A stretch of DNA of 64,000 nucleotides from Escherichia phage Turkey5, in sequence record PQ471516.1; one strand, given 5' to 3'. Below the pieces are notes generated by a model that searched no databases, had not been told where the DNA came from, and saw only the letters and a program-made list of their open reading frames with translations. Position numbers and translations under genes: made by a program. Below are positions 53,952 through 54,625 of this stretch, one piece after another (position 1 is the first letter of the stretch; each line of letters begins with the position of its first letter).

Positions 53952-53970
53952 AAATTAGTGATATAATCTA

Positions 53971-54002
53971 AGGTGATAGCAGAGTTGTTATCACCTTTTT
54001 TT
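53971..54002 (+). terminator. rho-independent terminator
   Basis: AGGTGATA-GCAGAGTTGT-TATCACCT + T7. Confidence 0.85.
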
Positions 54003-54520
54003 AATCCTGAAAGGTTCCATAAGGAAATGATTAAGACCTAATCCACTCGAAAAGTAGAGGGTAGTTGAGTAGTCCTTTCAGTACGAACAGCAAAAGAAAC
54101 CCGTCAGATGTGGGCATAGTTTGAACCCCTCACGGCAATGCGGCTGTATAAAGAACTCCGATAAGCACACAGAGAGTTCCTAGATAGACATATAAGGATC
54201 GCACCTTACGAGATTTGCTAAGGGAGATTTCACTTTGAAATGCGGTCGTAATTTATACAATATAGTTGCGTCCAAAATTTGTGAAATCAAATACAAGTAC
54301 TGTTCATATGGTATTTGTATTATGTGTCGGGATGTTTAAGACCGACGACCGTTGCTACAAGAACCGCAATAGAGAGAAACAGAGCAACCCGCTTTCGCCC
54401 CAGTACTGGGAATTTGTGATATGAATATGTGAAGACCATCAGCGTCAAACTTTTTGTTCTTTCCCCTGCGGGGGGATGAAATATGTTCAAACAAATCCCG
54501 TCAATATTAATTAAACTACT
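54003..54520 (+). ncRNA. ORF-free, GC-richer region; candidate structured RNA or decayed gene (strand uncertain)
   Basis: no ORF of 60 aa or more in any frame from 53952 to 54625; ~42% GC by hand count of 54001-54480; local hairpins incl. GTCGG/CCGAC 54326-54346 and palindrome CCCAGTACTGGG 54399-54410. Confidence 0.3.
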
Positions 54521-54527
54521 AATAAAG

Positions 54528-54556
54528 TTGAATTAGACATGCGAAGCGTGTATAAT
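54528..54556 (+). promoter_or_regulatory. promoter
   Basis: TTGAAT 54528-17-TATAAT 54551. Confidence 0.65.
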
Positions 54557-54625
54557 TCAACCGATTTTTATTGAGTGCTAACGAGATAAAAGTCGTGTAC
54601 ATCCATTGATGTTTCCATAGGAATA

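Follow-up and report, generated by a model that had tools for sequence, protein, structure and literature searches.

Positions 53939-54600 (+ strand) of the stretch of the Escherichia phage Turkey5 genome analysed here (PQ471516.1; 64,000 nucleotides (nt), hereafter 'the window') are the gene for a large structured non-coding RNA, c. 520-640 nt long and heavily pseudoknotted. The RNA lies in the gap between two coding sequences (CDSs), 53004-53951 and 54626-55168, both on the + strand. Comparison with its relatives shows that it is non-coding, that it is better conserved than its neighbours and that it has its own conserved promoter. Judged by Rfam and literature searches, it appears to represent a new class of RNA, an as yet undescribed family found in jumbo phages of several genera and in chromosomal islands of enterobacteria. 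The reading that we favour, with a probability of roughly 0.55, is a stand-alone RNA that acts in trans and that would serve phage take-over or a conflict among phage, host and islands.

Structure of the RNA

The initial annotation of this locus had described a GC-enriched, hairpin-rich gap free of open reading frames (ORFs) behind a terminator, and its leading idea was a large structured phage RNA, with a decayed gene, an origin or a packaging site as alternatives. Both its description and its leading idea are borne out. No frame between 53952 and 54625 contains an ORF of 60 or more amino acids (aa); the longest on the - strand have 56 and 52 aa, and the longest on the + strand has 52 aa. Within 54003-54522 all six frames are interrupted, by 7-11 stops each. 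The GC content of 54001-54480, put at c. 42% by hand count, is 41.9%, as compared with 35.8% for the whole window and 31-38% for adjacent 300-nt windows.

We rejected a protein-coding gene or pseudogene as an explanation of the gap: no frame is open, substitutions relative to close and distant relatives alike fall evenly on the three codon positions, and none of the indels relative to the two closest relatives (0/10 and 0/6) is a multiple of three. In favour of such a reading, several submitters did annotate tiny ORFs in the homologous gap. Other records leave the gap without annotation, however, and where small ORFs are listed their places and strands are not the same from genome to genome. 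These small CDSs, overlapping a structured RNA, are almost certainly false gene calls. Records that carry them (SHEFM2K, E9.1, JP4, WPEC3/5, SD-2_S15, Hallingskeid, Kaldavass and fHe-Yen9-04) list two to six 'hypothetical proteins' of 30-80 aa on varying strands. With the gap better conserved than the flanking genes and its covariation far above controls, a decayed gene or a chance hairpin-rich spacer is refuted, and we give it next to no weight.

The comparative alignment that the initial annotation had proposed as a check comprised 49 non-redundant representatives (alignment A2), with identities of at most 96% between any two. Helices were derived from a scan of column pairs together with inspection. 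The model built from them, in a notation with three kinds of bracket, comprises 20 helices (92 pairs) in three crossing layers. Its pairs are formed in 95.0% of alignment cells, as compared with 78.6% in shuffled alignments and 34-42% when the 3′ partners are slid by 1-3 columns. Pairs changed on both sides number 59 of 92 (43.9 shuffled; 22-30 slid), and cells with double changes 724 (221 shuffled; 73-137 slid); for each of these three measures, the observed value was reached by none of 500 shuffles. RNAalifold, run on 30 sequences, predicted 57 pairs, with compensatory changes at 27 of them. The best helices (P6, P2, Ha, Hb, Hc, He and PK1) show three to five pair types per position. The predicted fold shown by these comparisons has at least 17 covariation-supported helices and four crossing (pseudoknot) interactions: PK0 over P1, the P7 loop with 54241-46, the Ha/Hb loop with 54419-24 (PK1), and Hd over He and Hf. 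Its elements are as follows.

54007-54084 (+): 5′ domain, in which P1 encloses P2 and P3
54007-14/54074-81 (+): P1; double changes in four of seven pairs
54015-18/54023-26 (+): P2 hairpin; double changes in all four pairs
54038-48/54057-64 (+): P3 hairpin, with conserved loop GAAAAGUA; double changes in six of eight pairs
54069-71/54082-84 (+): PK0, a 3-bp helix crossing P1; double changes in two of three pairs, 100% of cells paired
54087-91/54143-47 (+): P4, within 54087-54179; double changes in four of five pairs, 100% paired
54101-08/54130-35 plus 54112-14/54126-28 (+): P5, inside P4
54131-45 (+): invariant strand CACGGCAAUGCGGCU, inside the P4 region
54153-58/54174-79 (+): P6 hairpin; double changes in all six pairs, with 3-5 pair types each
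54183-54250 (+): central region, with invariant GAUAGACAUAUA (54183-94) and invariant UAAGGGA (54219-25)
54193-96/54205-08 (+): P7 hairpin, counted in the 92-pair model
54198-203 with 54241-46 (+): PK2 pseudoknot, P7 loop AUCGCA with UGCGGU
54290-54425 (+): 3′ pseudoknotted core, with invariant strands GACCGU and ACCCGCUU
54290-94/54317-21 (+): Ha, forming a long hairpin with Hb; double changes in all five pairs
54298-301/54310-13 (+): Hb, the other part of this hairpin
54304-09 with 54419-24 (+): PK1, Ha/Hb loop UCAUAU with AUAUGA; double changes in five of six pairs, 98.6% paired
54325-28/54344-47 (+): Hc; double changes in three of four pairs
54351-55/54384-88 (+): Hd, crossing He and Hf; double changes in three of five pairs, 100% paired
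54365-69/54414-18 (+): He; double changes in all five pairs
54372-76/54392-96 (+): Hf; double changes in two of five pairs, 100% paired
54440-54514 (+): 3′ part of the core, with CGUCA (54443-47), a U-rich linker, Hh and conserved strand GGGAUGAAA
54461-65/54471-75 (+): Hh hairpin, varying solely from C-G to U-G
54497-54503 (+): invariant C-CGUCA, the second base variable
54066-68/54501-03 and 54187-89/54444-46 (+): candidate long-range pairings; both triplets are invariant and hence give no covariation signal

All six pairs of complementary segments singled out in the initial annotation proved to be real, conserved helices. Five sit in the tested model: GAAAGG/CCTTTC is P1, CCGTCAG/CTCACGG is P5, GTCGG/CCGAC is Hc, GTTGC/GCAAC is Hd and CCCC/GGGG is Hh. 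The sixth, the palindrome CCCAGTACTGGG (54399-54410), lies outside the model and is a variable hairpin whose CCC/GGG stem covaries. The PK2 partners also vary across homologues while staying complementary (GAUCGCA/UGCGAUU, GUGCA/UGCAC, GAUACUA/UAGUAUC, GCCAAA/UUUGGC and others), with a mean best complementarity of 5.1 against 3.8 in shuffled sequences.

Two features of the alignment bear on what kind of element this is. First, G·U occurs in 255 cells and A·C in only 45; the folded strand is therefore the + strand, and the changes in Hh likewise fit the + strand only. A site acting as DNA alone would leave this strand asymmetry unexplained, which makes a pure DNA site, such as a packaging site, unlikely; an origin that uses the transcript as a primer is weighed below. 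Second, 102 columns are invariant, and 57 of them lie outside the listed helices. Invariant unpaired positions are typical of catalytic RNAs or RNAs with several partners.

No known family accounts for the fold. The initial annotation had recognised no tRNA, tmRNA or intron core and had suggested a scan of Rfam, and the outcome agrees with it. Rfam 15 (4227 models, including group I and II introns, RNase P, tmRNA, 6S, ROOL, GOLLD, OLE, HEARO, raiA and small self-cleaving ribozymes) gave no match in the whole window at the gathering threshold. A permissive scan of the gap region (E up to 10) gave four unrelated sub-threshold matches, none on the conserved core, and no family recurred across 12 other members. 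ARAGORN found no tRNA or tmRNA gene in the window. Membership of ROOL or GOLLD was rejected, there being no homology to either Rfam model. In the full-text literature we found no earlier description of the RNA, though unpublished work could exist.

Phage paralogues and bacterial islands

The closest relative of phage Turkey5 is the Asteriusvirus vB_EcoM_JNE01, an Escherichia phage of 356 kb; identity between the two is 97.8% over 53000-55700 of the window. Against 121Q/PBECO4-type phages the gap is 86-87% identical, a query of the gap plus downstream genes is c. 80% identical and the upstream gene does not align; the gap is thus the best-conserved stretch of its neighbourhood. It is matched by 61 phage records. 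At greater distance, c. 460-560 nt align at 65-75% identity in Cronobacter phage GAP32, Pectobacterium phage CBB, Serratia phage BF, Yersinia phage fHe-Yen9-04, the Erwinia phages, Xanthomonas phages XbC2 and XaC1, Salmonella phage Munch and Klebsiella phage fENko-Kae01. These jumbo phages span Mimasvirus, Eneladusvirus and other genera. Synteny is kept across genera: a hypothetical gene and a terminator precede the gap of c. 700 bp, and behind it come genes for a hypothetical protein of 175 aa, a Dam methyltransferase and a cytidylyltransferase; the XaC1 copy sits in a different neighbourhood.

The RNA is also multi-copy within genomes. The invariant 15-mer CACGGCAATGCGGCT, at 54131-45 in the window, occurs two or three times per jumbo-phage genome in IMG/VR, where an exact scan returned 96 stretches; most matches on small contigs are chance, and among all these stretches the family profile matched jumbo-phage contigs only. 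Copies were counted with a second motif pattern together with the family profile, which filtered out many chance matches in the genome and metagenome scans. 121Q, GAP32 and CBB each have three copies, and Yen9-04 has four. In JNE01 they lie at 8.1 kb (the orthologue of the window copy), 148.9 kb and 267.0 kb, that is, 97-141 kb apart. The window copy is one of three diverged paralogues in phage Turkey5. The other two lie outside the window, within which blastn and nhmmer matched 54008-54514 only and found no second copy; the profile of the family, too, matches as far as 54514. The two further copies of 121Q also fill gaps, here of 720-830 bp; one comes behind a sigma-factor gene, and the other (copy 3) is on the + strand between two - strand genes, those for endonuclease VII and for a hypothetical protein next to the baseplate hub. 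Differences between paralogues amount to c. 25-30%, and every class of paralogue is conserved in several genera, from which it follows that the duplications are old and that the copies have been kept.

Some paralogue classes have an extra hairpin and U-run, resembling an intrinsic terminator, within the RNA, in the interval from the first CGUCA to the C-rich 3′ hairpin (121Q copy 3, L116:1910-2469; L111, L117, L127 and L130; island copies L153, L168 and L180). Apart from the island copies, these classes do not have the middle region that forms PK2. They may be functionally distinct subtypes, or may contain an internal attenuator.

Full-length copies of the RNA are present in bacterial chromosomes as well (nhmmer E-values 1e-79 to 1e-101), namely in E. 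coli LR-29-1, Citrobacter amalonaticus, Enterobacter chinensis, Silvania hatchlandensis, Buttiauxella and another Enterobacteriaceae isolate. The island genes are in the same order on about fifteen metagenomic contigs. Of 5,426 complete E. coli genomes only two contain the RNA, and the search of plasmids gave no match. The island, c. 6.5 kb long, begins with a large serine recombinase or tyrosine integrase, followed by the RNA on the integrase strand within a non-coding stretch of c. 1.7 kb, and by a convergent cI repressor with an S24 peptidase domain. Then come a Ner-type helix-turn-helix (HTH) protein, a membrane protein with four transmembrane segments (F1), an LprI-like or other secreted protein and, usually, a resolvase (examples are L136:896-7118, L264:2608-8672 and L179:8119-12232). 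It is apparently a recurrent, undescribed enterobacterial element.

On the island proteins, PADLOC, PHROGs and Pfam recognised only the integrase, cI-S24, the Ner-type HTH, LprI and the resolvase, and the island stretches examined gave no match to a replicase, a capsid or a known defence system. Neither F1 nor any other island protein has a homologue in the window, the phage loci or the phage collection, so that phage loci and islands have only the RNA, and no protein, in common. Among the bacterial copies three or more clades can be told apart, and the phage paralogue class that is nearest differs from clade to clade, which implies repeated exchange between phages and islands.

Two further observations concern the islands. 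The E. coli LR-29-1 island (L168:7957-18301, adjoining ffs) is degenerate, with an IS3 insertion, loss of cI and Ner, and extra DUF4326, DUF488 and dual-OB genes. About 50 nt upstream of the -10 element of the island RNA lies a perfect palindrome, CCCTATAAATATC-GGTA-GATATTTATAGGG (L136 ~2700-2760; also L151, L154, L160 and L162), which could be an operator for cI or Ner, or the terminator of the integrase gene.

This distribution invites the idea of a selfish RNA, a degenerate or ORF-less self-splicing intron or other mobile ribozyme that spread within and between genomes. The RNA is multi-copy, it is found in phages and mobile islands, its fold is pseudoknotted, and some copies have HNH endonuclease genes nearby. 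We nevertheless regard this idea as very improbable. Across 13 family members there was no Rfam group I, group II or ribozyme match at E up to 10, catalytic cores of both intron groups included. No copy examined lies inside a gene, and therefore there are no exons to splice. The paralogues hold conserved syntenic positions across genera, and are therefore old and stable rather than recently mobile. A group I or II intron was also rejected on its setting, as the window element lies between complete, separately conserved genes with a terminator and a promoter, and the other copies examined are intergenic too. The HNH genes lie c. 1-2 kb from two RNA copies, in phage A4 (L018:251-559) and as gene 170 of 121Q (L115:3021-3809).

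Among described RNAs, the closest in kind are ROOL and GOLLD, large ornate phage and prophage RNAs with cryo-electron microscopy (cryo-EM) structures (PMC12286853). Like the jumbo-phage RNA, these are non-coding RNAs of 500-800 nt from phage or prophage DNA, with many conserved helices and pseudoknots, no fixed linkage to a protein gene and a function that is not known. Unlike them, the jumbo-phage RNA has no sequence or structure match to either Rfam model, occurs in Enterobacteriaceae and their phages (the names ROOL and GOLLD refer to rumen, lake-water and Lactobacillales sequences), is present several times in a single genome and has a conserved promoter of its own. Also similar in kind are ncRNA001-004 of the related Pseudomonas jumbo phage PA5oct, transcripts of 236-619 nt from ORF-free regions defined by RNA sequencing, two of which each make up c. 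1-5% of phage reads at three sampled time points (PMC7318152). They too are several per genome, lie in ORF-free regions and have no known function. In contrast to the jumbo-phage RNA, no conserved structure has been reported for them, and the ncRNA001, 002 and 004 regions, which we checked, have no sequence similarity to the family and do not contain its invariant motifs.

Promoter, terminator and tail hairpins

The elements flanking the RNA core in the window are the following.

53939-53967 (+): putative RNA promoter, with -35-like TGAGAC (53939-44), a 17-nt spacer and extended -10 TGATATAAT (53959-67)
53970-54004 (+): intrinsic terminator of the upstream gene, a 12-bp hairpin (53970-97) plus T-run
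54527-54595 (+): tail module of two adjacent hairpins, A (54527-61) and B (54562-95)
54626-55168 (+): first downstream CDS, 180 aa, phrog_16210, hypothetical; context, not demonstrably part of the RNA

The promoter, predicted to be active from its sequence, overlaps the stop codon of the upstream CDS, and is the single site in the whole 64-kb window with the pattern TGA[AG]AC-N15-19-TATAAT. A motif of the form aaTGAAAC-N17-TGnTATAAT precedes all phage and bacterial copies examined, TGAGAC being the variant in the window. This motif is that of the 'divergent RpoD-like' promoter class, with a TGAAACG -35 element, which has been described for CBB and GAP32 (PMC5259590). The extended -10 motif TGNTATAAT occurs 18 times in the whole window, as compared with 7.7 ± 2.7 expected, mostly on the + strand; this excess is consistent with a general promoter type of phage Turkey5.

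The upstream terminator, which the initial annotation had placed correctly, begins three bases past the -10 element in this copy (copy 1), and the expected RNA start (c. 53974) therefore falls inside the 5′ arm of its hairpin. The full hairpin folds at -19.5 kcal/mol, as compared with only -7 kcal/mol for a transcript begun at 53974. In the copy-1 orthologues examined, a hairpin likewise lies within a few bases of the extended -10, usually with a T-run. One gene further upstream, the terminator hairpin at 52958-52982 has TATAAT in its loop (GAGGCTGGGATATAATCCTGGCC, then a T-run); here, too, a -10-like box and a terminator are fused.

Behind the core and an AT-rich spacer come the two tail hairpins. 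The apex of hairpin A is GCGAAGCGUG, related to the family motif GAACGnAGUGAG, and hairpin B contains GAGUGCUAACG; the stretch 54505-54630, which includes both, folds at -33.2 kcal/mol (z = -5.2). Counterparts with apical GAACGnAGUGAG trail the core in phage and bacterial copies, and are retained even in copies that have no co-oriented gene downstream. The hairpins are candidates for a part in processing, termination or regulation. The initial annotation had read 54528-54556 as a promoter; the site does match the consensus at 10 of 12 positions, but it lies inside the conserved, covarying hairpin 54527-54561 and may not be a promoter. Behind the tail there is no canonical intrinsic terminator; the + strand has its next strong one at 57416-57433. 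The co-directional row that begins at 54626 continues with a Dam-type DNA methyltransferase (55185-55712) and a cytidylyltransferase (55709-56248). Directly behind other paralogues we observed an ADP-ribosylglycohydrolase-like gene (copy 3 on the 370-kb IMG/VR contig L127) and a DPPY-motif DNA methyltransferase (Yen9-04 copy 4, L129). Together with the Dam gene behind the window copy, these suggest that copies of the RNA would head operons of counter-defence-type genes.

Such an arrangement would suit a cis-acting operon leader, which would act on its own transcript or polymerase, by processive antitermination of the kind known from HK022 put or through protection or processing of the mRNA behind it, with the tail hairpins as RNase III or regulatory sites beside the first ribosome-binding site. 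Every copy of the RNA has a promoter immediately before it, and a place behind a promoter and in front of a row of phage genes is also that of put and other cis-acting antiterminator leaders. In the window, as in most phage copies, co-directional genes follow without a clear terminator, among them genes for anti-restriction-type methyltransferases and an ADP-ribosylglycohydrolase, and hairpins A and B abut the start of the next gene. On the other hand, copy 3 of 121Q points into two - strand late genes, and every island copy faces a convergent cI, with no gene of its own orientation downstream, yet keeps the whole core and tail. Known cis antiterminator RNAs measure c. 70-120 nt, whereas the core here has c. 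520 nt with c. 100 invariant positions; relative to put, the jumbo-phage RNA is c. 5-8 times larger, and it is kept where no co-oriented genes follow. We therefore consider a leader unlikely.

The transcript could instead serve as an origin primer of the ColE1 RNA II or T4 oriF/oriG R-loop type, in which a persistent hybrid primes DNA synthesis. Like RNA II, the RNA is a structured transcript of c. 550 nt from its own dedicated promoter, and like oriF and oriG it is found at several loci per phage genome. Its three to four dispersed copies, 97-141 kb apart in JNE01, would then be several origins, and the islands would be satellites with a helper-type origin, replicated by the infecting jumbo phage; they do carry an integrase and a cI/Ner switch, with no match to a replicase or capsid in the stretches examined. 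An AT-rich stretch follows the core, and in CBB the TGAAACG-type promoter class clusters before DNA-synthesis genes (PMC5259590). Against this, the conservation of unpaired nucleotides and pseudoknots far exceeds known primer needs, primer RNAs requiring neither c. 100 invariant nucleotides nor four pseudoknots. There is also no inflection of GC skew and no switch of gene orientation at the locus, and the copies are unevenly spaced in GAP32, CBB and Yen9-04. Even spacing was accordingly rejected as an origin signature: it is roughly even in Asteriusvirus, but not in these three phages. An origin primer seems to us quite unlikely.

Possible roles of the RNA

Several observations argue for a stand-alone RNA acting in trans: its own promoter, its independence of neighbouring genes, including antisense placement, the maintained paralogues, the invariant unpaired positions, and its presence in islands with which the phages share no protein. 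The independence of context is seen in the 121Q copies, in the neighbourhood of the XaC1 copy and in the bacterial copies convergent with cI. Since the RNA alone is common to virulent jumbo phages and chromosomal islands, we place its function in conflict between phage, host and mobile element.

Under this trans-acting reading, host RNA polymerase would transcribe the RNA from the extended -10 promoter. Transcripts from upstream would stop at the terminator, and the RNA's own transcripts, starting inside the stem, would pass it, an arrangement that would insulate the RNA from its neighbour. The core of c. 520 nt and the two tail hairpins would then be released, or would work in trans as a discrete folded particle. 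As to its activity, catalysis as a ribozyme is one possibility, and service as a protein scaffold or decoy another. Such an RNA could aid phage take-over or counter-defence, and the islands could carry a copy in order to exploit the same machinery or interfere with it.

Some points tell against this reading. The ends of the transcript are predicted only, and the analysis brought to light no catalytic motif, ligand or protein partner. None of the known defence systems is matched by the island proteins, and a role in conflict, as a decoy or as a ribozyme is suggested by the distribution of the RNA alone. In addition, most phage copies have no intrinsic terminator between the RNA and the co-directional genes, for which reason a leader role keeps some weight.

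In a bolder version, which we think unlikely, the RNA would be the catalytic or organising core of a new, RNA-based function on which jumbo phages depend early in infection, and the islands would be new minimal satellite or defence elements. If this were true, the RNA mimic of the islands, under a phage-type promoter, would hijack or sabotage the infecting jumbo phage, the targets being replication, packaging or gene expression.

Bacterial and phage RNAs of more than 400 nt with a comparable conserved, tertiary-style structure are few. Such large RNAs with known roles are ribozymes or cores of ribonucleoproteins, and the orphans among them (OLE, GOLLD, ROOL and raiA) are targets of structural biology. 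The RNA described here is present in cultivable E. coli phages (121Q, PBECO4, G17 and JNE01) in three copies that can be deleted, it has c. 50 diverse homologues usable for covariation analysis and cryo-EM, and its bacterial counterpart sits in a compact island with a repressor switch. Its recognition also means that many 'hypothetical protein' calls in GenBank inside these gaps are mis-annotations. Study of the RNA could uncover an RNA function new to the biology of jumbo phages, as well as a new kind of mobile element related to phages.

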